Shown here piece by piece: positions 17,706 to 39,541 of a stretch of 42,564 bases of DNA. Below the pieces are notes generated by a model that saw nothing but the letters and a program-made list of their open reading frames with translations, was not told the origin of the DNA and searched no databases. Source of the DNA: Candidatus Limnocylindria bacterium (GTDB taxonomy: Bacteria > Chloroflexota > Limnocylindria > QHBO01); assembly GCA_035764845.1 (NCBI GenBank), contig DASTYP010000243.1, positions 1-42,564 of the forward strand, read 5' to 3'. A program made the position numbers and the translations under genes. The stretch's first letter is position 1. Each line of letters begins with the position of its first letter.

Positions 17706-17730
17706 GGACGCGAGAGCGGGGGCAGCACGC

Positions 17731-18324
17731 TCAGACCTCGCGCTGCTCGCGGCCGACGGCGAACTCGGCGAGCACACCCGTGGCCACCAGGGCTCGAAGC
17801 AGGTACCACGACCCGATTCCGGCGATCAGGATGCCGCTGATGACCGTGGCGACCGCGAAGATGACCCAGAAGTCGACGCCCAGATCGGGGTAGTAGACGG
17901 CGATGTCGTGGATGGCGGCACCGATGCCGGCCAGCGCACCGGCCAGCATCGCGAAGGGCAGGTTCCAGTTGCGGTACATCCCCAGGGCGAAGGCGAGCTC
18001 CGCCGCCCCACCCTGGATCGCACCCGAGATCAGGACGTCGACTCCCCAGGGTGAGCCGAGCAGGACCGATACGGCCGCCGACACGAAGCCGCCGAAGAAG
18101 GCGGCCCCCGGACGGCGGACGATCAGCCCGACGAGCACGCCCGGCACCAGCCACACGCCGTAGAGAATGGCCTGGGCCGGCTTCAGGGCCGCGAAGATCG
18201 GGTCCGTCGCGGTGTAGATGGCGTTCCAGGCGAGGAAGACGACGCCGAAGGCGACGGCGACGACGGCGCCGACGACGATGTCGACGATGCGCCAGCCGCC
18301 GGCCGAGCTCGTCGTGGTGGTCAT
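17731..18324 (-). CDS. ykoE: ECF transporter S component, YkoE-like (thiamine/HMP-related)
   Basis: It is 197 aa with about 6 TM helices. It sits between thiN and the ECF ATPase under a TPP riboswitch. The start overlaps the thiN stop as ATGA. Confidence 0.7.
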   Translation of the reverse strand: MTTTTSSAGGWRIVDIVVGAVVAVAFGVVFLAWNAIYTATDPIFAALKPAQAILYGVWLVPGVLVGLIVRRPGAAFFGGFVSAAVSVLLGSPWGVDVLISGAIQGGAAELAFALGMYRNWNLPFAMLAGALAGIGAAIHDIAVYYPDLGVDFWVIFAVATVISGILIAGIGSWYLLRALVATGVLAEFAVGREQREV

Positions 18325-18974
18325 GGATTGGCTCCTTCCGTGCTGCTCTCGACGACCAGGAGCGTCCCCTCCCGCAGCCGGACCGATGCGGGCGCCGCCA
18401 CGACCTCGTTCGAGAGGCCGCGGGAGCGGCCTGCCCGCAGGGTCGCATCGGCCAGCGGCCAGCGCAGGCCGTCGGTCGTGACGCCAATGGCGTCAGCGGC
18501 GAGTGGGAGGAGGCTGACGATCGCGCCGGGCGCGCCCTCGAGGGCCAGCACCGAGTCCCCGTGCAGCACCCGCACGGTCGTCGTCCCGCGGACCAGCCGC
18601 AGGTCGACCTTCGCGAACGCCGGATCGGCGAGCAGCAGCAGGTTGGCGAGCTCGTGGTCGAGCCGCTGGCCACCCAGGGCGCCCAGGAGGATCAGCTCCG
18701 TCGCGCCGGAGGCGATCGCGGCCTCGAGGGCCAGCTCCGTGTCCGAGGCGTCCTTGTCGGCCGGGTGGCGTTCGATCCCGACGCCCCGGGCCCGAAGACG
18801 CTCGACGAGCTCCGCATCGGTCGAGTCGAGGTCGCCGACCAGGCGGTCGGGGACGCGCGCCATCCGGGCCAGCGACGACGCGCCGCCGTCGGCCGCGATG
18901 ACCAGCTCGGCCGAATCCAGCCAGGCGTCGTCCGCCGGCTCGATCGCGCCCGAGGCCACCACCACCACTCGCAT
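18321..18974 (-). CDS. thiN: Thiamine pyrophosphokinase
   Basis: It has GDLDS and KDASDTELAL motifs, and a C-terminal thiamine-binding beta domain (GLRWPL...LSN). An SD (GAGGAG) lies upstream of ATG 18974. Confidence 0.85.
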   Translation of the reverse strand: MRVVVVASGAIEPADDAWLDSAELVIAADGGASSLARMARVPDRLVGDLDSTDAELVERLRARGVGIERHPADKDASDTELALEAAIASGATELILLGALGGQRLDHELANLLLLADPAFAKVDLRLVRGTTTVRVLHGDSVLALEGAPGAIVSLLPLAADAIGVTTDGLRWPLADATLRAGRSRGLSNEVVAAPASVRLREGTLLVVESSTEGANP

Positions 18975-19064
18975 CGGCTCCTCATCGCGTGCTGTGCTGC
19001 CGAAACGACGTGCGGCGCGCTCGAACCCAGCTCGGGATTCGGGGCGCGCCGCGGACGAGTGCTG

Positions 19065-19160
19065 CGTCGACTTCCTTCGCCGGTATGACCCGGATCAGGT
19101 TCGAGGGTCTGCGGCCACGTGAGCCGCACTCTCAGCGCTGTCGCGCTCCCCTGTCGTTTC
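19065..19160 (-). promoter_or_regulatory. TPP (THI-box) riboswitch
   Basis: The minus strand reads CGACAGGGGAGCGCGACAGCGCUGAGAGUGCGGCUCACGUGGCCGCAGACCCUCGAACCUGAUCCGGGUCAUACCGGCGAAGGAAGUCG. Both the CUGAGA and ACCUGAUCCGG..AUACCGGCGAAGGAAG cores are present, and P1 is CGAC/GUCG. A -10-like GACAAT lies at 19165-19170. Confidence 0.9.
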
Positions 19161-19191
19161 GTGGATTGTCGGATCAGCCTAGCACGGGCCG

Positions 19192-20605: not shown

Positions 20606-23600
20606 ATGCCGAGCGACCAGACCGATCCCGGCGACTCCCTCCTCAGCGTGGCCCAGGCGGCCGCGGTGCTCGGCGTGCACCCCAACACGATCCGGACGTG
20701 GACGGATGCCGGACGGCTGACCGCCTACCGCATCAACGCCCGCGGCGACCGCCGCGTCCGCCGTCGCGACGTCGAGCGGCTGCTCGTGGAGGATGGGATC
20801 GCCGCCATGGAGCCGACGGCTCCGGCGATCGCGGTCGACGGCGCCGTCCACGACCGCGTCACCGCCACCATCGCGCGCCTGGCGCAGAAGCTCGCCGCCT
20901 CGCAGTCGCCGGCGGGCCTCGCCCGGGCCACGGTCGAGGCGGTCCGCGCCGATCTCGGGGCTCGGGCCGCGGCCGTGTACCTCGCCGCCGACGACGGCTT
21001 CACCCTGGCGGCCCACGCGGGGTTCGACGCTCCCCCGGCGCCGCACCGATCCCTCGACGGCGCACCGCCTCCGCACGAGCCGACCGCTGGCCTGCTGGAG
21101 GCACCGATCACGGGGAGCCGAAGCGTCCTGGGCCTCGTCATCGCCGATGCCGGTGGCTCCCGCGACGTCGAGCTCCTGCTGCGGGCCGTCGCGGCCACCG
21201 CCGGCGCGACGCTCCAACACCTGCGCCTCCTGGGTCGGGCGCGCCGGCAGCTGCAGCGCTCGCGCGCGCTGCGATCCGTGACCAAGGACCTCACCGGCAC
21301 CCTGGATCTCAACTCCGTCCTCGGCGACGCCGTCGAGCTCACCCGCTCGCTGTTCGAGGCCGAGAAGGCCGGCCTGTGGCTGGTGAACGACGCGAAGCAC
21401 CCGTTCCGGCTGGCGGCGCAGCACGGGCTCTCGCCGGCGTTCCTGGGCCACGTCGCGGACCTGCGGCTGAGCGACGAGACGCTCGGCGTCCGGGCCGCGC
21501 GCGAGGGCCGCTCCTTCTGGCTCAGCAACGTCGATACCGACGCGGGCGCGGGGAGCATGCGCGAGATCTACGCCGCGGAGGGCATCGTCACTGCCTGCCT
21601 GGTGCCACTGGTCGGGCGCGACGAGACGATCGGCGTGATCGCGCTGTACCACACGAGCTCCCGGATCTGGAGCGACGACTCGCTCGAGCTGGTCCAGGCC
21701 TTCGCCGACCAGGCCGCCGTCGCCATCCAGAACGCCCGCCTCTACCGCTCCGTGGCTGACCAGGCCGCCCGCATGCGCTCGATCCAGGACCTCTCGGCGC
21801 GGCTCAACCGGCTCACCGACGTCCGCGCCATCGCGCAGGCCATCGTCGCCGAGGCGAAGACGCTGGCCGAGTACCACGACATCCGGGTCTACCGGGTCGA
21901 CTGGGAGACGGGCTGGTGCGAGCCGATCGCCTTCACCCGCGAGATGCTGGTCGGTGATCCGGCGGACGCCGAGTCGCTGCTGCGCGTGGAGATCGGTCAG
22001 GGCTTCACCGGCTGGGTCGCCGAGAACGCGGAGCCGCTCCTCATCAATGACGCCGTCGACGACCCGCGCGGGCAGACCATCGAGGGGACCGACGACGTCC
22101 CCGAGTCCATGCTGGTCGTGCCCATGATCTACGAGGGGCGCACCACCGGCGTCATCGTCCTCAGCCAGCTCGGCTACGAGCGCTTCAGCGCCGATGACCT
22201 CCAGACCATGACGATCTTCGCCGGCTACGCCGCCCAGGCGATGGCGAACGCATCGGCCTACGAGCAGCTCCGCGACCAGTCGGCGGAGCTCGCGCGCCGG
22301 GCGGACTCCCAGCGCCGACTGCTGGAGATCAACGAGCGGCTGCTGTCGACCCTCGACCAGGCCGGCGTGCTGGAGACCATCGCCGATGGCCTGCGCGACG
22401 TCGTGCGCTACGACAACCTGTCCATCTACCGCACCGACCCGCAGCAGCAGGCGATGCTGCCGGTGCTCACCCGCGAGCGCCACGCCGAGCAGGTCAGCCG
22501 CTACATCATTCCGTTCGGCCGGGGCCTCATGGGCTGGGCCGTCCAGCACGCGCAGCCGATCCTCGCCAACGACGCCCTCAGCGACCCGCGGGCGCTCCAG
22601 ATCCCCGGGACGCCGGAGGACCCGGAGGCGGTCGTGGTCGTGCCGCTCATCGCCGACGGCGAGGTGCTCGGCGCCCTCAACGTCTCGCGCGTCGGCGGTC
22701 CGGAGGTGCACTTCAGCGAGAGCGACTTCGAGCTGGTGCAGCTGTTCGCCGCCCAGGCCTCCATCGCCCTCCGCAATGCCGATACGCACCACGCGGTCAG
22801 CCGCCTGGCCGAGACCGATGCGCTCACCGGCCTCGGGAACCACGGCGCCTTCCAGCGCGATCTCGGCCGCCTGATCGAGGCACGCGGCACCGCCGCGACA
22901 CGGGGCGGAGGCCTGACCCTGCTGATGATGGACCTGGACAGCTTCAAGGCCTTCAACGACGTGCACGGCCACCCTGCGGGCGACGCGCTGCTGCACCGCG
23001 TGGCGATGGCGATCTACGGCGCGGCTCGCAGCGAGGATCGCGTCTACCGCTACGGTGGCGACGAGTTCGCGCTCATCCTGCCCGCGACCACGGCCGCGCA
23101 CGGCGCGCGCATCGGCGAGCGCATCCGGACGGCCGTGGCAGCGCTGACGGCCCACGACCCGACGCCGGTCACCATCACGGTCGGAGTGGCGACGCTGACG
23201 CCCGACGTGGCGGACCGAGCCGCGCTCGTCGCGGCGGCCGACACGGCCCTCTACTACGGGAAGCGGGCGGGGGAGGACCGGATCGTGCGCTTCGATCGGA
23301 TGCCACCCGACGTCGGCGACCTGCGAGGAACGCTCGACGACCTGGCCGCGGCGGCGCTCCGAGACGGCGACGATGCCCGCGTGGTCGAGCACCTGGTCGA
23401 GCGCGCCTCGCAGCTGGGTGCGGCCGCACACCACGATGCGGCCGCGTCGGTACGCGACGCGCTGCTGACCGTCGCCCGCGCCGTCGACGGCCGCGGCCGC
23501 ACCAACCGCGGCCACGCCGATCGGGTCGGGCGGCTGGCCGGTGCCCTCGCCATGACGCTCCACCTCGACGAGGACGTGCGCCGCACCGTGGAGCTGGCCG

Positions 23601-23977
23601 GACGGCTGCACGCGCTCGACGACCGCGGTGTCGCCGAGATCAGCAGCGTCCCGTCGCTGCACGACGTCTCGGCGCTCATCGTCGGCGCCCGGCGCCTCGC
23701 CGACGAGGGAGCGCGGCGCGCCCGTCGGACGTCCCGGATGCGCGGCCGCCTGGGCGCGCACATCGTGGCCGTCGCCAACGGCTACGACGAGCTCGTCTCC
23801 GGCGTCGGTGGCCCTCGCGTCGGCCGTCGCGAGGCGCTGGCGCGGCTGGCATCCCACCCGAGCAGCTACCGCGACGAGGTGCTCTCGGCCCTGGCCGGCA
23901 TCGTGGGCGAGCGCCGTGACTCGGGACGTCGCCGCCGAGTCTCCGATTCCGCCGGTGAGGTTCCGGGAGCCGCCTGA
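20606..23977 (+). CDS. Multidomain signalling protein: excisionase/MerR-type HTH, 3-4 GAF domains, a GGDEF diguanylate cyclase domain and a degenerate HD(-GYP)-like domain
   Basis: The HTH is LLSVAQAAAVLGVHPNTIRTWTDAGRLTAYRI. There are repeated GAF-like blocks. GGDEF is intact (RYGGDEFALIL, 23054-23068), with an RSED I-site 5 aa upstream. The C-terminus has GHADRVGRLA...LHALDD. An SD (GGAG) precedes ATG 20606. Confidence 0.85.
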   Translation: MPSDQTDPGDSLLSVAQAAAVLGVHPNTIRTWTDAGRLTAYRINARGDRRVRRRDVERLLVEDGIAAMEPTAPAIAVDGAVHDRVTATIARLAQKLAASQSPAGLARATVEAVRADLGARAAAVYLAADDGFTLAAHAGFDAPPAPHRSLDGAPPPHEPTAGLLEAPITGSRSVLGLVIADAGGSRDVELLLRAVAATAGATLQHLRLLGRARRQLQRSRALRSVTKDLTGTLDLNSVLGDAVELTRSLFEAEKAGLWLVNDAKHPFRLAAQHGLSPAFLGHVADLRLSDETLGVRAAREGRSFWLSNVDTDAGAGSMREIYAAEGIVTACLVPLVGRDETIGVIALYHTSSRIWSDDSLELVQAFADQAAVAIQNARLYRSVADQAARMRSIQDLSARLNRLTDVRAIAQAIVAEAKTLAEYHDIRVYRVDWETGWCEPIAFTREMLVGDPADAESLLRVEIGQGFTGWVAENAEPLLINDAVDDPRGQTIEGTDDVPESMLVVPMIYEGRTTGVIVLSQLGYERFSADDLQTMTIFAGYAAQAMANASAYEQLRDQSAELARRADSQRRLLEINERLLSTLDQAGVLETIADGLRDVVRYDNLSIYRTDPQQQAMLPVLTRERHAEQVSRYIIPFGRGLMGWAVQHAQPILANDALSDPRALQIPGTPEDPEAVVVVPLIADGEVLGALNVSRVGGPEVHFSESDFELVQLFAAQASIALRNADTHHAVSRLAETDALTGLGNHGAFQRDLGRLIEARGTAATRGGGLTLLMMDLDSFKAFNDVHGHPAGDALLHRVAMAIYGAARSEDRVYRYGGDEFALILPATTAAHGARIGERIRTAVAALTAHDPTPVTITVGVATLTPDVADRAALVAAADTALYYGKRAGEDRIVRFDRMPPDVGDLRGTLDDLAAAALRDGDDARVVEHLVERASQLGAAAHHDAAASVRDALLTVARAVDGRGRTNRGHADRVGRLAGALAMTLHLDEDVRRTVELAGRLHALDDRGVAEISSVPSLHDVSALIVGARRLADEGARRARRTSRMRGRLGAHIVAVANGYDELVSGVGGPRVGRREALARLASHPSSYRDEVLSALAGIVGERRDSGRRRRVSDSAGEVPGAA

Positions 23978-27318: not shown

Positions 27319-28170
27319 GTGTTGACCCTTCCGGGACCCGTCGTCGACGTCGACTGGCTGGCCGCCCACCGCGCCGATCCGTCGTTGCGGGTGGCGGACG
27401 TCCGGTGGTCGCTGGCCGGTCCGGCGGGGCGCGAGCTCTATGCGCGCGGCCACGTTCCCGGCGCGGTGTTCCTGGATGCCGAGACCGAGCTGTCGTCCCC
27501 CGGCGAGGGCCCCGGCCGCCATCCGGTGCCCGCCGCCGACAGGCTGGCGCGCGTCCTCGGCCAGCGGGGCATCGGCGACGAGCACGTCGTGGTCGCCTAC
27601 GACGATGCCGGCGGCAGCATCGCGGCCCGCCTGTGGTGGCTCTTCCGGCACTACGGCCATGACGGGCAGGCCGCCGTCCTGGACGGGGGCATCGGTGCCT
27701 GGACCTCGACCGGCCTTCCGCTCGAGACCGATCCGCCGGCCTACCCGCCGGCGACCTGGACCGTCCGGCACGTCGCCGATGACCTGGTCGGAACCGATGA
27801 GGTGGTCGGGATGCTGGACGGCGAGACGCTGCTCCTCGACGCGCGGGCGCGGGAGCGATACCGCGGCGAGACCGAGCCGATCGATCCGCGCGCCGGGCAC
27901 ATCCCCGGCGCGGTCAGCGCGCCGCACGCGGACAACCTGGGCGCCGACGGACGCTTCCTGCCGGCCGATGCGCTGCGCCGGCGATTCCGCGCGCTGGGCG
28001 TGGCGGACGACCGACCGGTGGTCGCGTACTGTGGCTCGTCGCTGACCGCGACCCATGACCTGCTGGCGCTCGAGCTCGCGGGCCTGCCCGGCGGTCGCTT
28101 GTACGAGGGATCGTGGAGCCACTGGTCGTCCGATCCGAGTCGTCCCGCCGTGACGGGAGCAGCGCCATGA
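27319..28170 (+). CDS. Tandem-rhodanese sulfurtransferase (thiosulfate/3-mercaptopyruvate type)
   Basis: It has two rhodanese domains, an active-site loop YCGSSLTA, RYRGE, and SWSHW near the C-terminus. Confidence 0.85.
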   Translation: MLTLPGPVVDVDWLAAHRADPSLRVADVRWSLAGPAGRELYARGHVPGAVFLDAETELSSPGEGPGRHPVPAADRLARVLGQRGIGDEHVVVAYDDAGGSIAARLWWLFRHYGHDGQAAVLDGGIGAWTSTGLPLETDPPAYPPATWTVRHVADDLVGTDEVVGMLDGETLLLDARARERYRGETEPIDPRAGHIPGAVSAPHADNLGADGRFLPADALRRRFRALGVADDRPVVAYCGSSLTATHDLLALELAGLPGGRLYEGSWSHWSSDPSRPAVTGAAP

Positions 28171-29204
28171 CCGGTTCGCACGACGAGTGGGATGGCTGGG
28201 ACGAGGGGGCGGCCGAGGACCGCATCGGCCGCAAGCGCGACCGCCTCGCGCGGCTGCTGAGCGTCGCCTCCATCCTCTACTCGCGTGGCTCCGGCGAGAA
28301 CGGCGTCGCGGTCAGCGAGATCGCGAAGCTGACCGGGATGACCACGCGCACCGTGTACCGCGACATCAACGCGCTCGACGAGGAGCTGGGGGTCCCGGTC
28401 TTCCAGGCCGGGCGCGGCCGCTACGGCATCGATCGCAAGTTCTTCCTGCCGCCGCTGCGCCTGAGCGTCCCGGAGGCCATCGTCCTGTTCCTGGCGTCCC
28501 GCCTGATCGCGCGCTGGAGCGACCAGTACGACGCCTCGGTCGTCAGCGCGTTCACCAAGCTGGCCGACACCTTGCCGCAGCCGATCGCGCGGCACGTCGC
28601 CGCCAGCATGCTCACCATCGGCGCCGCCGACCCGAACGAGCCGTTCAGCCGCTCCTTCTCGGCCGTCGCGCGCGGCTGGGCCGAGGGCCGGGTCGTCGAG
28701 ATCGACTACGACCCGGGGACGGCGCCGGCCAAGCGCACGCGGGTGCACCCCTACTTCCTGGAACCGGATGCCGCGCTGCGCAGCGTCTACCTCATCGCGT
28801 ACGACGAGCCGGCCGGCGGGATGCGCACCTACAAGGTCGAGCGCATCCGCTCCGCCACCCTCACGCAGGACCGATACGAGATCCCCGAGGACTTCGACCC
28901 CGACGCCTGGCTCGCCAACTCGTGGGGCATCTGGTCCCCCGATTCGACGCCGCCGGTCCACGTCCGGCTTCGGTTCGAGTCCGAGGTAGCGCACCGCGTC
29001 CGCGAGGCGGTGTGGCATCGGTCGCAGGAGCTGACCGAGCTGCCGGAGGGTCGCGTGGAGCTGGCGGTGACGGTCAACGGCATCGTCGAGATCCGGCCGT
29101 GGATCCTGTCGTGGGGCGAGTCGGTGGAGGTGCTCGAGCCGCCGGAGCTGCGCGAGGCCATCGCCGCCTCCGTCCGTGGCGCGGCGGCGCGCTATGCCGA
29201 CTGA
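28167..29204 (+). CDS. HTH-WYL-WCX transcriptional regulator (PafBC/YafY-like)
   Basis: ORF 28113..29204 trimmed to ATG 28167, which forms an ATGA overlap with the rhodanese stop. The HTH is VSEIAKLTGMTTRTVYRDINAL. The WYL block is RVHPYFLE...VYLIAYDEPAGGMRTYKVERI. Confidence 0.85.
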   Translation: MTGSHDEWDGWDEGAAEDRIGRKRDRLARLLSVASILYSRGSGENGVAVSEIAKLTGMTTRTVYRDINALDEELGVPVFQAGRGRYGIDRKFFLPPLRLSVPEAIVLFLASRLIARWSDQYDASVVSAFTKLADTLPQPIARHVAASMLTIGAADPNEPFSRSFSAVARGWAEGRVVEIDYDPGTAPAKRTRVHPYFLEPDAALRSVYLIAYDEPAGGMRTYKVERIRSATLTQDRYEIPEDFDPDAWLANSWGIWSPDSTPPVHVRLRFESEVAHRVREAVWHRSQELTELPEGRVELAVTVNGIVEIRPWILSWGESVEVLEPPELREAIAASVRGAAARYAD

Positions 29205-29841
29205 GGTCGAGGCGCGCTTTGCGGCCGACGGCCCGCTGCCCCTCGAGGCGCTCACGCGCGCCGCGCGCCTTGGCCCGGCGGTGCTCGGGCGGCCACGCAC
29301 GGCCGACGAGACCGACCGCTACCTGGACACCGACGACGGAGCCCTGGCGACGGCCCGCTGGGCCTGCCGCCTGCGCACCCGCGACGGCCTGACCCGCATC
29401 TCACTCAAGGGCCCGCCGGAGGCTGGCGACCGAGATGACTGGCACCACCGCCGTCCCGAGCTGGAGGGGCCGGCGACCGAGGAGCTGGACCCCTCCGCCT
29501 GGCCTCCCAGCTCTGCGCGCGACCTGCTCGACCGGTTGCGTGGCGGCGCTCCGCTGCGCGAGCGGCTGCGCCTGGTCCAGCGCCGCACCGAGCGCTCGGT
29601 CACGCTCGACGGCATCCCGTTCGGCACCCTGACCTGCGATCAGGTGCGCGTCGAGCGGGAGGGCTCAGCCGCGGGCGACCTCCACGTCGTGGAGCTCGAG
29701 CTCCACGACGAAGGCGGGGCAGACGCCCGCGCCGCGCTGGAGACCCTGGCCGGCGCCCTTGACTTCATGCCCGGCCTCCGGCCTGAGCCGCGGACGAAGT
29801 TGGAGCGGGCGCTGGACCTCCTCGGCGAGTCGCGGCCGTGA
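29194..29841 (+). CDS. CYTH-domain (triphosphate tunnel metalloenzyme) protein
   Basis: It begins MPTEVEARF, an ExExK-type motif with Arg in the Lys position. Alternating charged beta strands follow (CRLRTR, ISLKG, VVELELH). It overlaps the WYL gene by 11 nt. Confidence 0.7.
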   Translation: MPTEVEARFAADGPLPLEALTRAARLGPAVLGRPRTADETDRYLDTDDGALATARWACRLRTRDGLTRISLKGPPEAGDRDDWHHRRPELEGPATEELDPSAWPPSSARDLLDRLRGGAPLRERLRLVQRRTERSVTLDGIPFGTLTCDQVRVEREGSAAGDLHVVELELHDEGGADARAALETLAGALDFMPGLRPEPRTKLERALDLLGESRP

Positions 29842-32078: not shown

Positions 32079-32116
32079 CGCCGTGACTCGGCGCAGCGAC
32101 GCGTCGCTCGACGCCC

Positions 32117-32812
32117 TCAGCCCAGCTCCGGGAACGGCAGCCGCTGGATCAGCGACAGCCGCGGCCGCTGCGGGACCGCGGCCGGCGTGATCGGCAGTCG
32201 CTGCCACGCGTCGCCCGCCGGACCCGCGCGGTAACGGGCGTCCAGCCGGCGGGCCGAGATCGAGACGAGGCCGAAGCGTCCCAGCGCCTCGGCCAGGAGC
32301 GTCCCCTCGCCGCGCACCGCGTGCGAGACGACGCAGCGGTCGCCGTCGAGGAGCACCGCCTCGAGGTGCTGACGCCGCGCCGAGAACCGGCGGCGCTGCA
32401 ACGACCGCCCATCGGTCCAGAGCAGGTCCGTGGCGACGTAGGCCGGCCGGCCGGCGCGCCGGTCTCCGGTGAGGCGCCGGTGCAGCAGGCTCGTGTCCAG
32501 CCAGCCGCCGTCGTCCAGGGTCAGCAGCCAGCCGTCGAGCACCACGCCGTCCTCGATGAGCCGCTCCGGCAGCTCATCGCCCAGCTCGGCGAAGGCGTCG
32601 AGCGCATCGGCCAGGCCCTCCGCGCGGAGGCGCATCAGGGTTCGGTTCTCCACCCATGCCTGGGCGCGCACGCCGGGCCACCACGGCTCGAAGAGGTAGC
32701 CGGGGTCGTCGAAGGGCGAGGCGCCCTCGGTCGGCTGCATCGGATCGATCCGAGACGGCAGCGCCGAGCGCGGCTCGGGCGGGATCGGGAGGTCGAGCTG
32801 CTCTCCGGGCAC
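32117..32812 (-). CDS. LigD/ATP-dependent-ligase adenylation-domain homologue with all catalytic motifs substituted (predicted inactive)
   Basis: Motif I reads EPWWPGVR instead of ExKxDGxR. Motif III reads VLDGW instead of LDGE. DLLWTDGRSL matches motif IIIa. Motif IV reads SISARR and motif V reads WQRLP. There is no OB domain. It lies 14 nt downstream of Ku. Confidence 0.65.
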   Translation of the reverse strand: MPGEQLDLPIPPEPRSALPSRIDPMQPTEGASPFDDPGYLFEPWWPGVRAQAWVENRTLMRLRAEGLADALDAFAELGDELPERLIEDGVVLDGWLLTLDDGGWLDTSLLHRRLTGDRRAGRPAYVATDLLWTDGRSLQRRRFSARRQHLEAVLLDGDRCVVSHAVRGEGTLLAEALGRFGLVSISARRLDARYRAGPAGDAWQRLPITPAAVPQRPRLSLIQRLPFPELG

Positions 32813-32826
32813 GGCCCGTGGCGAGG

Positions 32827-33684
32827 TCAGGCCGTCTTGCGACGGCGCTGACGCGGTGCCTTGGCGGTCGCCTCCGCCGCGGGCTCCTCGACGGCGGCCC
32901 GGCGCTCGGAGCGCGCGGCCGCGACGGACGCCTCGAGCGCGGCCATGAGGTCGGTGATGTTCGTCGGCTCGGTCCGCTGGGCCGGCTCAGGCTTCTCGCC
33001 CGCGACCTTGCGCTCGATCACCGCCATGAGGGCCTGGCGGTAGTCGTCGTGGTACTCATCGGCGCTGAAGTCGCCCGTCATGCTCGCCACCAGCTGCTCG
33101 GCCATCTTCTTCTCGGCCGGCTTGATCTCGATCTGGTCCTCGGGGAGGTTGAGCTCGTCGATCGCCCGGACCTCATCGGGCCAGTGGAGCGTGGTCAGCA
33201 GCATGGTCGAGCTGAAGGGGTTGAGCGCGGCGAGCTGCTCGCGATCCTTCAGGACGATCTTGCAGATGGCGCTCTTGTTCTGCTCGGCCAGCACCGACTT
33301 GAGCAGGTAGAAGGCCTTCGCGCCGATCTGCTCGGGCTCGAGGTAGTAGGCCTGCTTCACGAACTGCGTCCCGGCGTTGTCCCGCGACGCGTCGACGAAC
33401 ATCTCGATCTCGATGGCCCGCATCGTCTTCAGGGGGACCGAGTCGATGTCCTCCTCGGTGACGACGACGTACTTGCCCTTGCTCCACTCGTAGCCGCGAA
33501 CGGTCTCTGAGCGCGGCACCACCTCGTCGTGGTACGGGCAGTAGACCTTCATCTGGATCCGGTTCAGGCAGCTGGCATGGAGCAGGTTGAAGCCGATGCC
33601 ACCCTGCTCGGTCGCCAGGTACAGCTTGACCGGGATCGTCACCAGCCCGAACTGGATCGCCCCCCGCCACATCGATCGCGCCAT
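32827..33684 (-). CDS. ku: Ku protein (non-homologous end joining)
   Basis: ORF 32827..33885 trimmed to ATG 33684 (MARSMWRGAIQFGLVTIPVKLY...). The N-terminus is the classic bacterial Ku type and the C-terminal tail is basic. An SD (GGAGAG) lies 9 nt upstream. Confidence 0.9.
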   Translation of the reverse strand: MARSMWRGAIQFGLVTIPVKLYLATEQGGIGFNLLHASCLNRIQMKVYCPYHDEVVPRSETVRGYEWSKGKYVVVTEEDIDSVPLKTMRAIEIEMFVDASRDNAGTQFVKQAYYLEPEQIGAKAFYLLKSVLAEQNKSAICKIVLKDREQLAALNPFSSTMLLTTLHWPDEVRAIDELNLPEDQIEIKPAEKKMAEQLVASMTGDFSADEYHDDYRQALMAVIERKVAGEKPEPAQRTEPTNITDLMAALEASVAAARSERRAAVEEPAAEATAKAPRQRRRKTA

Positions 33685-33871
33685 GAAGTCGGTCTCTCCG
33701 TGCGCCGCGTTCCGCGCCGGCCGTGCCCTGCCAGCGTTCCCGATCGCGGGCGGTGATGGTACACCGGCCTCGCAAGCGACCCGCACCTGCCATCCGTACT
33801 GCACGAGTACCAGCCACCCCGGCCCATACGAGCCATGGACCGATGCGCGCGCGCCCGCGACACTCGCAGCG

Positions 33872-34261
33872 ATGAACGACGACACCGCGCTTCGCGCCTA
33901 CGTCCTCGAGGACGACCCCGACATCGCCGCCCTCGAGGCGGACCTCCTGCGTGACATGGGGTTCGCCGTGGTCACCTGCACGCGGATCGTCGAGCTCGGC
34001 GACCTGATGGAGCTCGCGCTGCCGCACCTGCTCGTCGTCGACGTGATGCTGCCCGACGGCGATGGCGGCGACATCACGGAGCTGCTTCGATCCGCGTGGC
34101 CCGGCATCCCGGTCGTCATCGTCTCGGCCGCCAGCCGCGAGCGGCTGGCCGAGCTGGCGCCGATCGGCCCGGTCGTCGCCAAGCCGTTCGACCTCGAGTC
34201 CTTCCGGAACGCCGTCGGCGAGGCGATCGAGGGCTCGCGGGAGCTGCGCAGCGTCTCGTGA
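33872..34261 (+). CDS. Single-domain response regulator (CheY-like REC)
   Basis: ORF 33587..34261 trimmed to ATG 33872. It has the acidic pocket LEDD, phospho-acceptor VVDVMLPDGDG, VVIVSA, and KPF. Confidence 0.8.
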   Translation: MNDDTALRAYVLEDDPDIAALEADLLRDMGFAVVTCTRIVELGDLMELALPHLLVVDVMLPDGDGGDITELLRSAWPGIPVVIVSAASRERLAELAPIGPVVAKPFDLESFRNAVGEAIEGSRELRSVS

Positions 34262-34273
34262 CGCGGGGGCCGG

Positions 34274-34753
34274 CTACTCGACCCGGGTCCCGGACGGGCC
34301 GGTGCGGGCCACCAGCGCCGCGTGCTCGCTGCCGTCCGCGGCCGTGAGCCGGTAACGATGCTCGATCTCCACCGACGCCGACAGCATCGCGTTGACCGGG
34401 CAGTAGCGGGTGGCCGACAGCTCGATCGAGCGGCGCAGCGCCTCCGGCTCGACCTCACCGGTGACCTGGTGCTCGATCGTGATGGCCGTGAAGACCCTGG
34501 GGTGTTCGCCGGCCGATTCGCCGCGCACGTCGATCTCGTAGGTCGCGGCCGACTGGCGCTTCTTGCGCAGGATGCTCGCCACGTCGGCGGCGGCGCACCC
34601 GGCGAGCGCGGCCAGGACCGTCTCCTTGGGTCCGGCGGCCGAGTCGCGGCCCTCCGGCGGATCGGCGTCCAGGGTGATCGGCTGCCCCTTGGGCGTTCGC
34701 GCCTCGGTCCGGCAGCCGGTCGGATCGACGATCGCGTGGATGGATTCGCTCAT
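34274..34753 (-). CDS. OsmC/Ohr-family peroxiredoxin-like protein
   Basis: It has both conserved Cys contexts, LAGCAA and ATRYCPV, and a 159-aa length. Confidence 0.85.
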   Translation of the reverse strand: MSESIHAIVDPTGCRTEARTPKGQPITLDADPPEGRDSAAGPKETVLAALAGCAAADVASILRKKRQSAATYEIDVRGESAGEHPRVFTAITIEHQVTGEVEPEALRRSIELSATRYCPVNAMLSASVEIEHRYRLTAADGSEHAALVARTGPSGTRVE

Positions 34754-34765: not shown

Positions 34766-34782
34766 CCGTGGGGGCCCGGCCG

Positions 34783-35541
34783 ATGCGCGTGATCCGGCCG
34801 TCCGCGCTGGCCGGCAACGGCCGGCGTCGCACGCTGCTGCTGTCCGCGACCATGCTGGCGGTGGGCGTCCTGGCGGCCCAGCTCACGCTGCTGACCCCCG
34901 CCTCCACGGCCACCGGCGTGCTCGCCGCCTCCGCCGCGCTCGGGCTGGGCGTCGGCACCGCGTGGCTGCTCCGAGCTCTCCGCCCGAACCGTGCCCGCTC
35001 CGCGGCCGAGGCGCTCGCCGGCCTGCTGGCCCCGACGCTCGACGACAGCTACACCCTGCTCCTCGCCCCGACGCTTCCGGTGCGCGACGCCGCGCGGCTC
35101 GACGGGGTGCTCGTGGGCCCTGCCGGCGTCCGCGTCCTCACCGTCCGCGACTGGGACGGTCGCTACCGCGTCCGCGGGCGGGGCTGGGAGTTCGACGCGC
35201 GCGGCCGACGCGGCTGGATCACGTGCCGCACCAACCCGAGCTTCGAGGCCGCGTCGCTGTCCGAGGGGTTCTCACGCTGGGCGAGCGACGCCGGCCTGGT
35301 CCTCCCCGACGTCGCGCTGCGACCGGCCATCGCCTTCCCGAACCGTCGATCGCGGATCGTCCTGGAGGAGCCGATCGACGAGGTCATCACCACCGACAAC
35401 GCCCCGTGGTGGGCGAACACCATCGGCCGCGTGCAGCGGCTGGACCCCTCCTCGGTCGCCCGGGTGGTCGCGGCGGTCATGGAGGCCGCCGAGGCGCGCT
35501 CGGCCGTCGGCCGTCGGCCGGCCGCGCAGGACGCCGGCTGA
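34783..35541 (+). CDS. Membrane-anchored NERD (nuclease-related domain) protein
   Basis: It has two N-terminal TM helices. The NERD-like core is YTLLLAPTLP...LDGVLVGPAGVRVLTVRDWDGRY. The start is ATG 34783, or GTG 34768 as in the track. Confidence 0.6.
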   Translation: MRVIRPSALAGNGRRRTLLLSATMLAVGVLAAQLTLLTPASTATGVLAASAALGLGVGTAWLLRALRPNRARSAAEALAGLLAPTLDDSYTLLLAPTLPVRDAARLDGVLVGPAGVRVLTVRDWDGRYRVRGRGWEFDARGRRGWITCRTNPSFEAASLSEGFSRWASDAGLVLPDVALRPAIAFPNRRSRIVLEEPIDEVITTDNAPWWANTIGRVQRLDPSSVARVVAAVMEAAEARSAVGRRPAAQDAG

Positions 35542-35542
35542 G

Positions 35543-36172
35543 CTAACCCTCCGCGCCGGGGTGGCCCTGGCCGCTGCGCAGCCAGGCCTCGGCCGTCGCC
35601 TCGTCGAGGACCTCGGCCAGCAGCTCGTCGGGCCGCTCGTCGTCGGCGACGATCAGCACCTGCGCCCGGTCGCGCGCCAGCGCCACCACCGCGCTCTCGC
35701 GGTTCAGCTGCGGGTGCGCGGCGGACGTGATGGCCGCGTCCGTCATGGGCAGGAATCGGTCGGGTACGTTCAGGAGGCCGTCCATCGGCCGGCTGCCCTG
35801 CGGGACGTAGATCGTGCCGGTCAGACGGAACGGCGGCAGGCCCAGCTGCGCGCGCACGCCGCGCTTGGGGATCCGCATGTGGTCGCCACTCCCCTGCACG
35901 GCACCCTCGCCCGGCTGGTCGGTGAGCAGGACGACGAGGACCTCGTTCAGGGGCACCAGGGCCTGGGGGACGCGCTGCGGCGGGGCGGGGTCACCGTGCT
36001 CGCCGATGGTCGCCTCGTCGATCACCAGGTGCGCGCCGGTGTTCTGGTTGAGGATGTCGGCCACGCGCGTGAAGCGGGTCTTCATGTGGCCCGACACCCG
36101 GTAGGCGCTGGTGTACGCCTCGATCGCCACGTCGTGGACGGTCCCGAACCCCTCGAACCCGAAGCCACTCAT
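35543..36172 (-). CDS. Hypothetical protein (209 aa) made of two similar ~90-aa modules
   Basis: This clean ORF lies 52 nt downstream of the DNA ligase gene. The repeat is YRVSGHMKT..RVADILNQ...HLVIDEATI...VLVVLLTD versus FRLTGTIYV..RPMDGLLNV...FLPMTDAAI...AQVLIVADD. I recognise no family. Confidence 0.6.
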   Translation of the reverse strand: MSGFGFEGFGTVHDVAIEAYTSAYRVSGHMKTRFTRVADILNQNTGAHLVIDEATIGEHGDPAPPQRVPQALVPLNEVLVVLLTDQPGEGAVQGSGDHMRIPKRGVRAQLGLPPFRLTGTIYVPQGSRPMDGLLNVPDRFLPMTDAAITSAAHPQLNRESAVVALARDRAQVLIVADDERPDELLAEVLDEATAEAWLRSGQGHPGAEG

Positions 36173-36224: not shown

Positions 36225-37973
36225 CTACTCGGGCGGCGCCTCCCCGGTCGCCGCGATCTCCTCCGTCTCGCCGCGGGCGCCGGTCGCCAGCAGGATCCGT
36301 CCGGATGCCTGCTCGCCGAAGAGGGCCTCCACGGTCGCCAACGTGTCGATGTCGGCGGGCGTCTTGTCGTCGCGGATGCGGACGATCCGCGGGAAGCGCA
36401 TGGCGAAGCCGGACCGGTGCCGCCCCGAACGCATGATCCGGTCGAAGGCGATCTCGACCACCACCTCGGGCACCACGGTCCGGTAGCGGCCGAAGTCGCG
36501 CAGGGTGATGGCCTTGAAGTGCTCGGTCATCTCGGCGATCTCCGCATCGGTCAACCCGGTGTAGGCCTTGCCGATGGTGAGCAGCCGCGCGTCCGGCGCA
36601 TCGGTCTCGCGCACGGCGAAGGTGTAGTCCGAGAGGACACCGCGACGCTTGCCATGGCCCCACTCGACGCCGACCACGACGCAGTCCAGCGTGGCGAGCG
36701 CCTTCTTCAGCTTCAGCCACCCGAGCCCTCGACGCCCCGGCTGGTAGACGGAGGCGGGGTCCTTGACCATCAGCCCCTCGTTGTGGCGCTCGCGCGCGTC
36801 GTCGAAATGCCGGTCCACCTCCTTCGCGGAGGCGGCGGTGGCCAGGTGCGAGAGCAGCACGCGCTCGCCGGTCACCTCGGGAAGGCCCAGGCGCTCGAGC
36901 TCGCCACGTCGCTCGCGGAGCGGCACCTCGAGCAGGTCGCGGCCGCCGTGGTGAAGCAGGTCGAAGGCGACCAGCACCACCGGGACCTCCTCCAGGAGCG
37001 CCTGCGACGGGCGGACCCGCCCCAGCCGCGTCTGGAGGGACGCGAAGTCCAGGACGGATCCTGCCCGCCACGGGACCAGCTCGCCGTCGAGCACCAGCGG
37101 ACCGTCGCCCGTGAGCGCGGCGCCGGCCTGCGCGATCTCCGGGAACGAGCGGGTCACGTCGTTGAGGTCACGGCTGAAGAGGCGGACGGTGCCGTCAGCC
37201 TCGAGATGGAGCTGCGCGCGGATGCCGTCGTACTTGTCCTCGATCCACGCCTCGTCACCGACGCGACGCATGACCTCGGCCGCGTCGGCCACGGGCGAGG
37301 CGAGCATGAAGCGGATGGGGCGGCCCACGTGCAGCGCGGCGCCGGCCAGGCGGTCGTCGCGGGCCAGCAGCGCGGTCTCGCCGATGTCGCCGGTGAGCAT
37401 GTGCGCCCGGCGAACCGCGTCGAGGTCCCGGTCGAACGCGGCCGCCACCGCCTCCTCCAGCAGCCCCTCGCGCAGCCCGATGCGCGTCTCGCGCGAGCTG
37501 ATGCGGCCGATGAAGCGGGCCTCGTCTCCGGTGGCCCGGCGGAACAGGTCGGTGAAGCGGGTGACCCGCTCCTCGGCCGATCCCGCCGCCGCGATGGAGG
37601 CGAACCCGTCCGCCACGTCCGCCACGGTCAGCGGCGCGCCGCCCGATGGTGCGCGCTCGCCGAGCAGCTCCGCGGCGGCGTCGCCGAAGTCGGAGTGGCG
37701 CAGGTAGGCGGTACGCAGCCGCTCCTCGTCGGCGCCGCTGGCCGCCGCGAGCGCCGCCCCCTGCTGGACCCAGCCCATGCCGAGCTTGGCGGTCGGGTCG
37801 GTGAGCGGGCGGCCGGCAAAGAAGGTCGTCGCCGCCACCAGGTCGCCCGCCGGCAGGTCACGCAGGTAGCCGGCCAGCAGGTCGCGCTTGGCGTTCTTGC
37901 TGCGGGTGGCGCCGACCGCGTCGGCCGTCGCGGCCAGGCGAGCGAACGGCGTGGAGGCGGCGCGCGGCGGCAT
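36225..37973 (-). CDS. ATP-dependent DNA ligase with an N-terminal DNA-binding domain (Lig1/LigB type)
   Basis: Motif I is EDKYDGIRAQLH, motif III is LDGELV, motif IV is EGLMVK and motif V is WLKLKK. An OB domain and motif VI (RFPR) are present. Confidence 0.9.
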   Translation of the reverse strand: MPPRAASTPFARLAATADAVGATRSKNAKRDLLAGYLRDLPAGDLVAATTFFAGRPLTDPTAKLGMGWVQQGAALAAASGADEERLRTAYLRHSDFGDAAAELLGERAPSGGAPLTVADVADGFASIAAAGSAEERVTRFTDLFRRATGDEARFIGRISSRETRIGLREGLLEEAVAAAFDRDLDAVRRAHMLTGDIGETALLARDDRLAGAALHVGRPIRFMLASPVADAAEVMRRVGDEAWIEDKYDGIRAQLHLEADGTVRLFSRDLNDVTRSFPEIAQAGAALTGDGPLVLDGELVPWRAGSVLDFASLQTRLGRVRPSQALLEEVPVVLVAFDLLHHGGRDLLEVPLRERRGELERLGLPEVTGERVLLSHLATAASAKEVDRHFDDARERHNEGLMVKDPASVYQPGRRGLGWLKLKKALATLDCVVVGVEWGHGKRRGVLSDYTFAVRETDAPDARLLTIGKAYTGLTDAEIAEMTEHFKAITLRDFGRYRTVVPEVVVEIAFDRIMRSGRHRSGFAMRFPRIVRIRDDKTPADIDTLATVEALFGEQASGRILLATGARGETEEIAATGEAPPE

Positions 37974-38033: not shown

Positions 38034-38648
38034 ATGCTGCCGCGCATGGTCTTCCCGTGGCAGAAGCGCAACGTGCCGGACGAGCTCGCCGCCCGCGTCC
38101 CACCGGGGCAGGTGCTGACCGAGAAGTTCCCGGTCCTGCATTTCGGGCGCGTTCCGGACTATGGCGACCTGTCGGGCTGGGACTTCCGGGTGTGGGGTGA
38201 GGTGGACGAGCCGTTCCGCCTCAACTGGGCGGAGTTCCGCAACCTTCCGGTGGCGGAGCTGACGACCGACATCCACTGCGTCACGCGCTGGTCGAAGCTC
38301 GACACGCGGTGGGAGGGCGTCGCCTTCAGCCATGTCGCCGAGGTGGCCGTCGTGCGCCCGAGCGCCCGCTTCGTGATCTTCCACGCCGAAGGCGGCTTCA
38401 CCGCCAACGTGCCGCTCGAGACGGCCATGCGCCCCGAATGCATCCTGGCGTGGTCCTACGACGGGCAACCGCTGACGGCGGAGCACGGCTACCCGCTGCG
38501 GGCGATCGTCCCCGGGACCTACTTCTGGAAGAGCGCGAAGTGGCTGCGCGGCGTCGAGTTCACCACGGACGACCGCCTCGGCTTCTGGGAGCGCAACGGG
38601 TACCACAACGACGCGGACCCGTGGAAGGAGCAGCGCTACTCGCGCTGA
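38034..38648 (+). CDS. Sulfite-oxidase-family molybdopterin oxidoreductase (small, YedY/MsrP-like catalytic domain)
   Basis: This is the C-terminal part of ORF 36111..38648. The Mo-ligand Cys context is DIHCVTRWSK, and GYPLRAIVPG and WKSAKW are present. The alternative start ATG 38046 fits TTGACC-N17-GATGCT-N7-ATG. Confidence 0.8.
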   Translation: MLPRMVFPWQKRNVPDELAARVPPGQVLTEKFPVLHFGRVPDYGDLSGWDFRVWGEVDEPFRLNWAEFRNLPVAELTTDIHCVTRWSKLDTRWEGVAFSHVAEVAVVRPSARFVIFHAEGGFTANVPLETAMRPECILAWSYDGQPLTAEHGYPLRAIVPGTYFWKSAKWLRGVEFTTDDRLGFWERNGYHNDADPWKEQRYSR

Positions 38649-38953
38649 CCGGAGTCCTCGCCGGGCTCGCCGGGCATGGTCTTGGCGCGAGCGATGAGCT
38701 CAGCGACCCGACGTCCACCCTTGCGGCCGATCTCGCGGAAGTGCTCGTTCGAGTACCGCTCGCTGACCGCCTTGCCGCCCTTGGCGCCGATCTCCTGGAA
38801 GAACTCCGGCCCGTAGCGGGCTCGCGTGGTCTTGCCACCCTTCCGCCCCGCCTCCCGAACGCTCATGTTGCCGCCGGCCTTGCCGGCCGCGGCCGTCCCG
38901 CCCGTGTTGACGGTGTTGCTGCCGTTCTGCTCGGCGCTGCCGCGCTTCGCCAT
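38636..38953 (-). CDS. KGG-repeat general stress protein (GsiB-like)
   Basis: ORF trimmed to ATG 38953, with an AGGAG SD upstream. The repeats are GRKGGKTT, GAKGGKAV and GRKGGRRV. Its 3' end overlaps the convergent Mo-enzyme gene by 13 nt. Confidence 0.8.
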   Translation of the reverse strand: MAKRGSAEQNGSNTVNTGGTAAAGKAGGNMSVREAGRKGGKTTRARYGPEFFQEIGAKGGKAVSERYSNEHFREIGRKGGRRVAELIARAKTMPGEPGEDSGQRE

Positions 38954-39075
38954 CTGGCGCTCCTGTTCTGCGTGCTTGGTGCTCCGATCCCCCCGCTCCC
39001 CAGCCGAAGCAAGTTGCGTACCTGCCGTCCCCACGGGCGAGCGGCACGCGTCGAGGGCCGGGAGCGCGACCGGGC

Positions 39076-39464: not shown

Positions 39465-39541
39465 GCCCCCATCGTCTAGAGGCCTAGGACGCCACCCTTT
39501 CAAGGTGGAGATCACGGGTTCGAATCCCGTTGGGGGCACCA
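39465..39541 (+). tRNA. tRNA-Glu (anticodon UUC), CCA encoded
   Basis: The sequence is GCCCCCATCGTCTAGAGGCCTAGGACGCCACCCTTTCAAGGTGGAGATCACGGGTTCGAATCCCGTTGGGGGCACCA. It folds by hand into a cloverleaf with acceptor GCCCCCA/TGGGGGC, anticodon loop CTTTCAA and a GGTTCGAATCC T-arm. Confidence 0.95.

Follow-up and report, generated by a model that had tools for sequence, protein, structure and literature searches.

A ku-linked pseudo-ligase of Limnocylindria: a conserved LigD-type nucleotidyltransferase domain predicted to be catalytically dead

Introduction

Limnocylindria, a class of Chloroflexota, are abundant in soil and fresh water, and bacterial nonhomologous end joining (NHEJ) is usually presented as a two-component process of Ku and LigD. 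In this study, we examined a stretch of 42,564 nucleotides from a Candidatus Limnocylindria bacterium (GenBank assembly GCA_035764845.1, contig DASTYP010000243.1; the whole stretch is referred to as the window), in which ku is followed by a gene for a 231-aa protein that resembles a DNA ligase domain without its catalytic residues. A first-pass annotation, made from the sequence alone, had described this protein, here called the pseudo-ligase, as a dead paralogue of the LigD adenylation domain and had suggested that it was retained as a partner of Ku, a scaffold or an end-binding factor in a non-canonical form of NHEJ.

Results

The locus

The features of the locus are listed in Table 1. The pseudo-ligase open reading frame (ORF) was read from the sequence with a GTG start; its length of 231 aa and the exact 14-nt gap behind ku agreed with the first-pass annotation, and every peptide string quoted there was present in the translation. 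The GC content at third codon positions (GC3) of this ORF was 0.94, as is usual for coding sequence in the 73%-GC window. When the spacer between ku and the pseudo-ligase gene was read, no Shine-Dalgarno-like sequence was found in it, and scans of positions 31900-34100 revealed neither a sigma-70 promoter nor an intrinsic terminator.

Table 1. Positions of the ku-pseudo-ligase module, of the motif remnants and terminal peptides of the pseudo-ligase, and of other features of the window
Feature	Position	Strand	Description
ku (285 aa)	32827..33684	-	TIGR02772 Ku_bact E=3.3e-80, Pfam Ku E=7.8e-40; upstream member of the two-gene module
Spacer, ku stop to pseudo-ligase GTG	32813..32826	-	14 nt, CCTCGCCACGGGCC
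Pseudo-ligase coding sequence (231 aa)	32117..32812	-	LigD-type nucleotidyltransferase (NTase) domain lacking an OB domain and the catalytic residues; GTG start
N-terminal peptide QLDLPI (residues 5-10)	32783..32800	-	Resembles beta-clamp-binding motif
Motif I remnant FEPWWPGVR	32666..32692	-	Canonical FEgKWDGyR; Lys to Trp44, Asp to Pro46
Motif III remnant VVLDGW	32528..32545	-	LDGE to LDGW; Trp95 in place of ribose-contacting Glu
Motif IIIa region YVATDLLWTDG	32408..32440	-	Retained in part
Motif IV remnant LVSISARR	32246..32269	-	EGv.AK to VSISAR (EG..AK to ....AR); Lys to Arg188
Motif V remnant WQRLP	32192..32206	-	WlKvK to WQRLP (W.K.K to W.R.P); Arg205, Pro207
C-terminal peptide RPRLSLIQRLPF (residues 216-227)	32132..32167	-	Consensus RPRLALIQRLP[LF] (RP.L.LIQRLP[LF])
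Intact LigB/Lig1-type ATP-dependent DNA ligase (582 aa)	36225..37973	-	DNA-binding domain, NTase and OB domains; PF04675, PF01068 and PF04679 all above cutoffs
Region 5' of ku with conserved blocks	33685..33900	-	Matching regions in L002-L058
Single-domain response regulator	33869..34261	+	Divergent from ku
OsmC	34274..34753
NERD-like protein (257 aa)	34768..35541
DUF6812 protein	35543..36172
LEA_5/KGG-repeat protein	38636..39034
WYL/WCX regulator	28113..29204	+	PafC-like HTH
CYTH-domain protein	29176..29841	+
SbcCD/Mre11-Rad50-like pair	7699..12008	-	~994-aa AAA_27/AAA_23/SMC_N ATPase (7699-10683); 442-aa calcineurin-like phosphoesterase (10680-12008)
Thiamin pyrophosphate riboswitch	19055..19162	-	Rfam RF00059, 65.7 bits
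Thiamin pyrophosphokinase and ECF-type transporter operon	15436..18974	-
HTH_17/MerR-3xGAF-GGDEF protein (1,123 aa)	20606..23977	+	Putative diguanylate cyclase regulator
tRNA-Pro prediction (96 nt)	37584..37679	-	ARAGORN; within the LigB-type coding sequence
tRNA-Glu(UUC)	39465..39541	+	ARAGORN and Rfam

The pseudo-ligase is a homologue of the LigD NTase domain

Profile searches matched the pseudo-ligase to the NCBIfam model PRK09632 (LigD; E=1.7e-21), of whose 781 positions the match covered 472-656, the NTase part of the ligase, and to TIGR02779 (NHEJ ligase domain; E=6.5e-16). When the Protein Data Bank (PDB) was searched with phmmer, the ligase domain of M. tuberculosis LigD (6nhx, 6nhz and 1vs0) gave the best solved structures by sequence, at E-values of 1-2e-10 (1.2e-10 for 6nhx). 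Curated cutoffs were higher than the scores of the pseudo-ligase in Pfam PF01068 (19.4 bits, gathering score 26.2), TIGR02779 (58.4 vs 227.75) and PRK09632 (76.2 vs 989). An AlphaFold2 (AF2) model built from a 150-sequence alignment, which took in canonical LigDs and the sister clade described below, had a predicted local distance difference test score (pLDDT) of 92.2 and a predicted TM-score (pTM) of 0.86; a shallow alignment of 34 sequences, all at least 70% identical, yielded an unusable model with a pLDDT of 38. When the former model was used as a Foldseek query, the top 50 matches were all ATP-dependent DNA ligases (TMq 0.53-0.72), among them a Thermococcus ligase (E=2e-13, TMq 0.71) and the M. 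tuberculosis LigD ligase domain, or LigDom (1vs0/6nhx; E~6e-11, TMq 0.66-0.68, 28% identity). The likeness to a LigD-type NTase domain that had been noticed by eye was therefore recovered by the NCBIfam profiles, the PDB search and Foldseek alike, and the pseudo-ligase is a true homologue of that domain, well beyond chance.

The catalytic residues have been replaced

Motifs were placed by a HMMER alignment to 1vs0 together with a three-group alignment of the 150 sequences. In motif I, the nucleophilic lysine has become Trp44 (codon 32681-32683) and the aspartate Pro46, with Gly47 and Arg49 of the motif retained; both Trp44 and Pro46 were present in 121/121 close homologues, compared with Lys and Asp in 55/55 canonical LigDs. 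Trp95 of motif III was likewise found in 121/121 core sequences, with Thr, Phe, Val or Met in divergent members and the original Glu in the sister clade. Dead and canonical sequences share the conserved D129, L130, L131 and G135 of motif IIIa. At motif IV, Arg was found in 40/41 and 54/54 dead sequences versus Lys in 55/55 canonical ones, and at motif V, R205 and P207 were found in 41/41 core sequences versus Lys/Lys in canonical LigD. The alignments and the codon reading thus agreed with the first-pass annotation for motifs I and III. Its claim that the lysines of motifs IV and V had been lost also held, but the replacements are Arg, Arg and Pro (Arg188, Arg205 and Pro207), not Arg, Gln and Leu as it had given them.

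Homology to ligases stops at about residue 207, and a 24-aa tail remains. As had been noted from the letters, neither an OB domain with motif VI nor a polymerase (POL) or phosphoesterase (PE) domain was found in the pseudo-ligase when Pfam, NCBIfam and the PDB were searched (there was no PF04679 match). With the nucleophile, the AMP-contacting Asp, Glu and Lys residues, and the OB domain with motif VI all gone, the protein is predicted to be unable to form a lysyl-AMP intermediate, and, scoring below the curated cutoffs as well, it would not belong functionally to the ligase family.

Within the NTase fold, Gly47, Arg49, Asp93, Gly94, Asp129 and Arg146/147 are retained, and pseudo-enzymes sometimes relocate their catalytic residues. 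We therefore considered that the pseudo-ligase might be a cryptic enzyme whose chemistry dispenses with the motif I lysine, such as the binding or removal of 5'-AMP from abortive ligation intermediates, or the sensing of nucleotides. The protein contains no lysine anywhere, and a relocated lysine nucleophile is thereby ruled out. Moreover, the Asp of motif I, the Glu of motif III and the lysines of motifs IV and V are replaced, two invariant tryptophans occupy the AMP site, and the candidate residues Cys160 and His164 are clade-specific and not conserved in divergent members. The motif I position also varies freely in the sister clade, and a new catalytic residue at that site is accordingly not favored. 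We regard a cryptic enzyme as highly improbable. The notion that the absence of lysine is in itself special was examined separately and rejected: lysine makes up 1.16% of the proteome of the window, the probability of none in 231 aa is ~0.07, and five other proteins of the window are also free of lysine.

The dead signature is conserved

Among 5.8 billion proteins searched, 1,031 relatives were identified. The 120 highest-ranking ones were all ~230 aa long and 71-99% identical (all but the top four, 71-76%), and where an organism was named they came from metagenome-assembled genomes (MAGs) of Candidatus Limnocylindria or Chloroflexota, or from soil metagenomes. Start, length and termini of the pseudo-ligase were constant over at least 57 species-level genomes. 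The ratio of nonsynonymous to synonymous substitution rates (dN/dS) was 0.22 (Nei-Gojobori, 53 orthologues, 1,377 pairs), compared with 0.18 for the neighbouring active LigB-type ligase, 0.135 for Ku and 0.36 for OsmC. The motif I lysine was present in 118/119 canonical LigD sequences, but in 0/121 close homologues, 0/120 sister-clade proteins and no divergent relative, so that the KxDG lysine was not retained in the orthologues. With the dead signature invariant in 121 homologues and a dN/dS of this size, the gene is retained and not decaying, as the first-pass annotation had supposed; the pseudo-ligase is, as judged from these comparisons, a conserved pseudo-enzyme under purifying selection that is catalytically dead.

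In two long-read MAGs, the pseudo-ligase gene was observed to be split by a frameshift with its neighbours intact (L057:5971-6694 and L058:6019-6685), which may reflect an assembly indel error or a rare true inactivation. These two copies, and the many long spurious ORFs that high-GC DNA yields, would be in favor of a decaying pseudogene, a sequencing error or a spurious high-GC ORF. That explanation is effectively refuted by the GC3 value, by more than 1,000 homologues, by the identical dead signature and low dN/dS described above, and by the spread over at least 57 species-level genomes.

ku and the pseudo-ligase gene form an ancient two-gene module

When the Genome Taxonomy Database (GTDB) was scanned with one genome per species, 58 loci were obtained, nearly all labelled Limnocylindria or Chloroflexota. 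In 57/57 of those having upstream DNA, ku lay immediately upstream on the same strand; Ku itself was 85-99% identical over 57 related genome loci, and the spacer measured 8-14 nt in 53 core loci. An exhaustive search of representatives also revealed more divergent members, 41-57% identical, in which FEPWWPG was kept. A metagenome scan seeded with four divergent sequences yielded 80 loci, 40 of which had at least 900 nt of upstream sequence and were informative, and ku was directly upstream in all 40, in a branch only ~45% identical to the window protein. Spacing in the divergent loci ranged from a 4-nt overlap to 73 nt, and 11 of 41 loci overlapped. Because the other neighbours in these loci were unrelated (CarA, urease, HpcH aldolase), it is only the pair of ku and the pseudo-ligase gene that is conserved. 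The Ku-linked clade was monophyletic with 100% neighbour-joining (NJ) bootstrap; deeper in the NJ phylogeny, all Lys-less clades grouped together at only 28-41% bootstrap, which does not demonstrate a single loss of the lysine. The survey of ku neighbourhoods that had been proposed for relatives thus recovered the same dead paralogue behind ku in 57/57 and 40/40 informative loci, and the pair is an ancient two-gene module. Its tight or overlapping spacing suggests that ku and the pseudo-ligase gene are translationally coupled.

A wider block was shared in the core clade only, consisting of the LigB-type ligase, an optional methyltransferase, DUF6812, NERD-like, OsmC, the response regulator, Ku, the pseudo-ligase and Wzy_C. 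The ligase of this block, described beforehand as an intact KYDG enzyme 3.4 kb from the pseudo-ligase, proved to be just that, with three Pfam domains above cutoff and its Lys247 encoded at 37233-37235. A LigB-type ligase was found 3-5 kb from ku in 48/59 related loci, and we infer a functional link in which it is the candidate sealing enzyme.

In tblastn searches with seven LigD proteins (five of 794-932 aa), neither the 42.5-kb window nor any of the 58 core loci yielded a POL or PE domain; a full LigD was seen in a single locus, L070 (L070:1125-5726, contig Ga0075319_1000132). In that locus, the only one of ~100 with both an active LigD and a pseudo-ligase, an intact 873-aa PE-LIG-POL LigD is followed on one strand by Ku and then by a 247-aa dead ligase. 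The LigD keeps all catalytic motifs (FEIKFDGYR, DGE, EG..AK and WLKVK), and the dead ligase, which opens with MPMERQQLTLALD, carries FFEPWWPGTP and, close to the C-terminus, LVLIERLPLED. Since an intact LigD stands beside it, the dead copy accompanies a ligase and is not a broken replacement for one.

In M. tuberculosis, direct binding to the LIG domain of LigD has been reported for both wild-type Ku and the Ku core, and the core and minimal C-terminus of B. subtilis Ku act on LigDom (PMC9638933; PMC13201618). A dead domain of this kind could be a negative regulator or end-capper, which as a dominant negative would fill the ligase-docking surface of Ku or the 5'-phosphate end; in a variant of this explanation, it would gate ligation until end processing or regrowth, or aid the removal of Ku after repair. 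Such a role would fit a LigD-LIG body, a known binder of the Ku core (PMC9638933), that is kept but unable to ligate, and the coexistence of an intact LigD in L070 is what would be expected of a competitor. The Arg-for-Lys changes at motifs IV and V may also preserve a phosphate-binding positive cleft, and Ku has been noted to remain DNA-bound once repair is complete, so that some means of removing it is required (PMC13201618). However, obligatory and roughly equal output of Ku and its own inhibitor over ~100 lineages would be unusual, and two conserved terminal peptides of the recruiting type (see below) fit an adaptor better than a blocker. On balance, we consider a negative regulator unlikely.

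Two terminal peptides are conserved outside the ligase domain

The pseudo-ligase begins with MPGEQLDLPI; of the close homologues, 120/121 share Q5 and L6, and 119/121 share I10. QLDLPI fits the QL[SD]LF / QLxLxL-type consensus of beta-clamp-binding motifs and nearly matches, in sequence and in position, the hexapeptide 6-QLSLPL-11 of E. coli Hda, of which Leu7, Leu9, Pro10 and Leu11 occupy the cleft of the clamp (PMC5397184). By this likeness, the peptide would most likely bind the beta sliding clamp. In the C-terminal peptide, R216, L219, L221, I222, Q223, R224, L225 and P226 were invariant (121/121), and among 2,753 ORFs of all fetched loci the motif was confined to dead-ligase genes. The pattern QL[STD]L.[LIF] was found in 118/120 sister-clade proteins and 0/119 canonical LigD, and was also kept in the divergent clade; overall, the two terminal motifs were present in 118/120 and 107-114/120 dead sequences, and neither occurred in the 119 canonical LigDs. 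In the AF2 model, both termini scored below the domain (pLDDT ~62 at QLDLPI).

MAFFT paired QLDLPI with 'HWDLRLE' of the PE domain in canonical PE-LIG LigDs, which was taken as an end-alignment artefact. A pairing of the C-terminal motif with LRHP of OB motif VI was also rejected as an artefact; the Lys-less relative P0187 has the C-terminal motif alongside an OB domain that contains a motif VI-like segment of its own. The terminal motifs could conceivably still be relics of PE and OB motif VI segments.

The sister clade consists of Lys-less, OB-less LigD-like proteins from Limnocylindrales/Chloroflexota MAGs (e.g., P0269 and P0296) that are 34-40% identical. In these proteins, the motif I position is occupied by S, A, W, N, R, T or F, the next residue is Gly and not Pro, and the Glu of motif III is retained. 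They carry QL[ST]L.L at the N-terminus and ...RLPL with an acidic tail at the C-terminus, after a long, variable low-complexity linker; in loci L060-L065, the N-terminal peptide was observed to be QLSLRL (L060 gene, 10001-10807). The sister-clade gene was always divergent from a gene for a ~720-755-aa protein, with Tricorn/S9 peptidase domains in three of four contexts. Other LigD-like representatives from metagenomes also lacked the motif I lysine (P0187, P0159, P0162, P0170, P0182 and others), with sequences such as FEPSWDGLR, FEPLYDGQR, FEVWWEGLR and FEVRWDGLR there, and some of them had an OB domain. P0187 keeps the OB domain and has both motifs (QLTLQL and ...LLQRLPLPED), and P0159 starts with MPQLSLFPEG, a textbook QLSLF clamp motif. 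Since Lys-less relatives with an OB domain carry such termini, the motifs may predate the loss of that domain.

These relatives bear on a further explanation, in which the pseudo-ligase would be a Ku-independent, clamp-associated sensor of nicks or ends in replication and repair, its linkage to ku being secondary and lineage-specific. The sister clade, which has both terminal motifs next to a Tricorn/S9 peptidase gene and not ku, is consistent with such a sensor, as are the motifs of P0187 and P0159. In the window gene's own clade, however, the linkage to ku is universal, ancient and tight, and clamp binding is itself a sequence-based prediction. We consider a Ku-independent sensor unlikely.

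Other features of the window

Blocks conserved over the core loci were observed 5' of ku, in a region common to ku and the divergently transcribed response regulator gene. They comprise TTGC-N~8-TGTACCAT, a TGGTAC box that lies another ~40 nt upstream, and a Shine-Dalgarno sequence, AGGAG; no sigma-70 consensus was seen there, and the blocks may be a candidate promoter or operator. Genes of stress or dormancy type lie between ku and the LigB-type gene (OsmC, NERD-like and DUF6812), with the LEA_5/KGG-repeat gene to the side, and the block from OsmC to DUF6812 was conserved alongside ku in most core loci. On the other side, just past a Wzy_C/TPR membrane-protein gene convergent with the pseudo-ligase gene, the WYL/WCX regulator gene is followed by the CYTH-domain gene, and the same genes flank the module in locus L001. 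In Actinobacteria, WYL regulators of the PafBC type govern the expression of DNA-damage genes. The gene for the GGDEF protein is also near the module in L001.

The SbcCD/Mre11-Rad50-like pair, ~20 kb from ku, is a second system for the processing of double-strand breaks in the window. The riboswitch is situated upstream of the thiamin pyrophosphokinase and transporter operon. Of the two tRNA predictions, tRNA-Glu(UUC) was supported by both programs, and the tRNA-Pro had no Rfam support and is probably a false positive.

Discussion

We favor, at about an even chance, the interpretation that the pseudo-ligase is a non-catalytic accessory or adaptor of Ku-dependent end joining and that another ligase seals the break. 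The Ku partnership, the scaffold function and the end binding envisaged by the first-pass annotation are suggested by synteny and, by analogy, by the published binding of Ku to the LIG domain of LigD. The non-canonical form of NHEJ that it had also suggested is no more than a possibility at the scale of a 42-kb window, and one relative (L070) has an intact LigD in the same row of genes. In such a mechanism, Ku and the pseudo-ligase would be made together from the two-gene module, and the retained ligase-domain body would dock on Ku and/or the DNA end, like the LIG domain of a real LigD. A basic cleft kept by Arg49, Arg146/147, Arg188 and Arg205 could provide the surface for Ku or the DNA end. 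The two flexible terminal peptides would recruit other factors, the N-terminal QLDLPI probably the beta sliding clamp and the C-terminal ...LIQRLP[LF] a second partner. A separate active ligase would then seal the strands, presumably the LigB-type enzyme in the window and, in one other lineage at least (L070), the full LigD.

A tentative extension of the adaptor interpretation, which we hold as doubtful, is a three-part form of NHEJ, in which the LigD-derived pseudo-ligase would bridge Ku at the break to the beta clamp and, through its C-terminal peptide, to a second partner, and clamp-bound polymerases and a general ligase (LigB or LigA) would stand in for LigD's POL and LIG domains.

Several observations weigh against the adaptor interpretation. 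The sister clade, with the same two terminal motifs, never adjoins ku in four distinct contexts; the core function of the dead family may not need Ku, or ku may lie elsewhere in sister-clade genomes. The linkage to LigB is confined to the core clade and missing in the divergent loci. Short QLxLx[LI]-like motifs can have other causes, and the C-terminal motif is without a known counterpart. Moreover, the AF2 model came only with canonical LigDs in its alignment, so that the ligase-like fold was partly built in; for that reason the modelled fold is not independent evidence, and the sequence statistics are.

In literature searches, we found no description of a Lys-less or inactive LigD paralogue, of a Ku-linked pseudo-ligase, or of NHEJ in Limnocylindria, and by these searches a dead ligase-domain partner of Ku would be a component not previously described for bacteria. 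No PADLOC defence-system match was obtained for the pseudo-ligase, Ku or two neighbours, and no relatives of the pseudo-ligase were found on IMG/VR viral contigs. If the protein works as proposed, it would provide bacteria with a dedicated non-catalytic NHEJ factor and a concrete link from Ku to the replication clamp. The proteins concerned, namely the pseudo-ligase, Ku, LigB and DnaN, are small and of soluble type, which opens the hypothesis to recombinant tests. There is also a consequence for annotation. Relatives of the pseudo-ligase are labelled 'LigD' or 'ATP-dependent DNA ligase' by JGI and 'hypothetical protein' by NCBI, and one survey scheme scores Ku plus LIG as 'non-conventional NHEJ+' (PMC7719229). 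Surveys of Ku and LIG domains of that kind, and the JGI labels, would credit genomes with an NHEJ ligase on the basis of a protein that is predicted to be unable to ligate.

Among the closest known systems are the LIG domain of LigD and stand-alone LigC, represented by M. tuberculosis LigDom (1VS0/6NHX/6NHZ), with which the pseudo-ligase shares the NTase fold at ~28% identity over ~190 residues. Like the LIG domain, it is encoded next to ku, and the Gly and Arg of motif I, the Asp-Gly of motif III and the Asp-Leu-Leu of motif IIIa are common to both. Unlike LigD, it is without the Lys nucleophile, the Asp of motif I, the Glu of motif III, the lysines of motifs IV and V, the OB domain with motif VI, and the POL and PE domains, and it has the additional terminal peptides. 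In layout, the protein is similar to E. coli Hda, in which a hexapeptide at the extreme N-terminus (6-QLSLPL-11, compared with 5-QLDLPI-10 here) is likewise attached to a domain that descends from a family of enzymes or initiators (PMC5397184). Hda, however, is an AAA+ protein that acts on DnaA and is unrelated to ligases or Ku, and for the pseudo-ligase clamp binding is only predicted.

A comparison may also be drawn with the eukaryotic non-catalytic NHEJ scaffolds XRCC4, XLF and PAXX, which bind Ku and ligase IV via short terminal motifs. The proposed likeness, an analogy from general knowledge, is that of a non-enzymatic Ku partner that would organise ligation by means of short terminal peptides. 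The pseudo-ligase has no sequence or fold relation to these proteins, which are built from a head domain and a coiled coil, and bacterial Ku is without the vWA domain that binds the eukaryotic Ku-binding motifs. If the three-part form of NHEJ is true, the pseudo-ligase would be a bacterial functional counterpart of the XRCC4, XLF and PAXX scaffolds.

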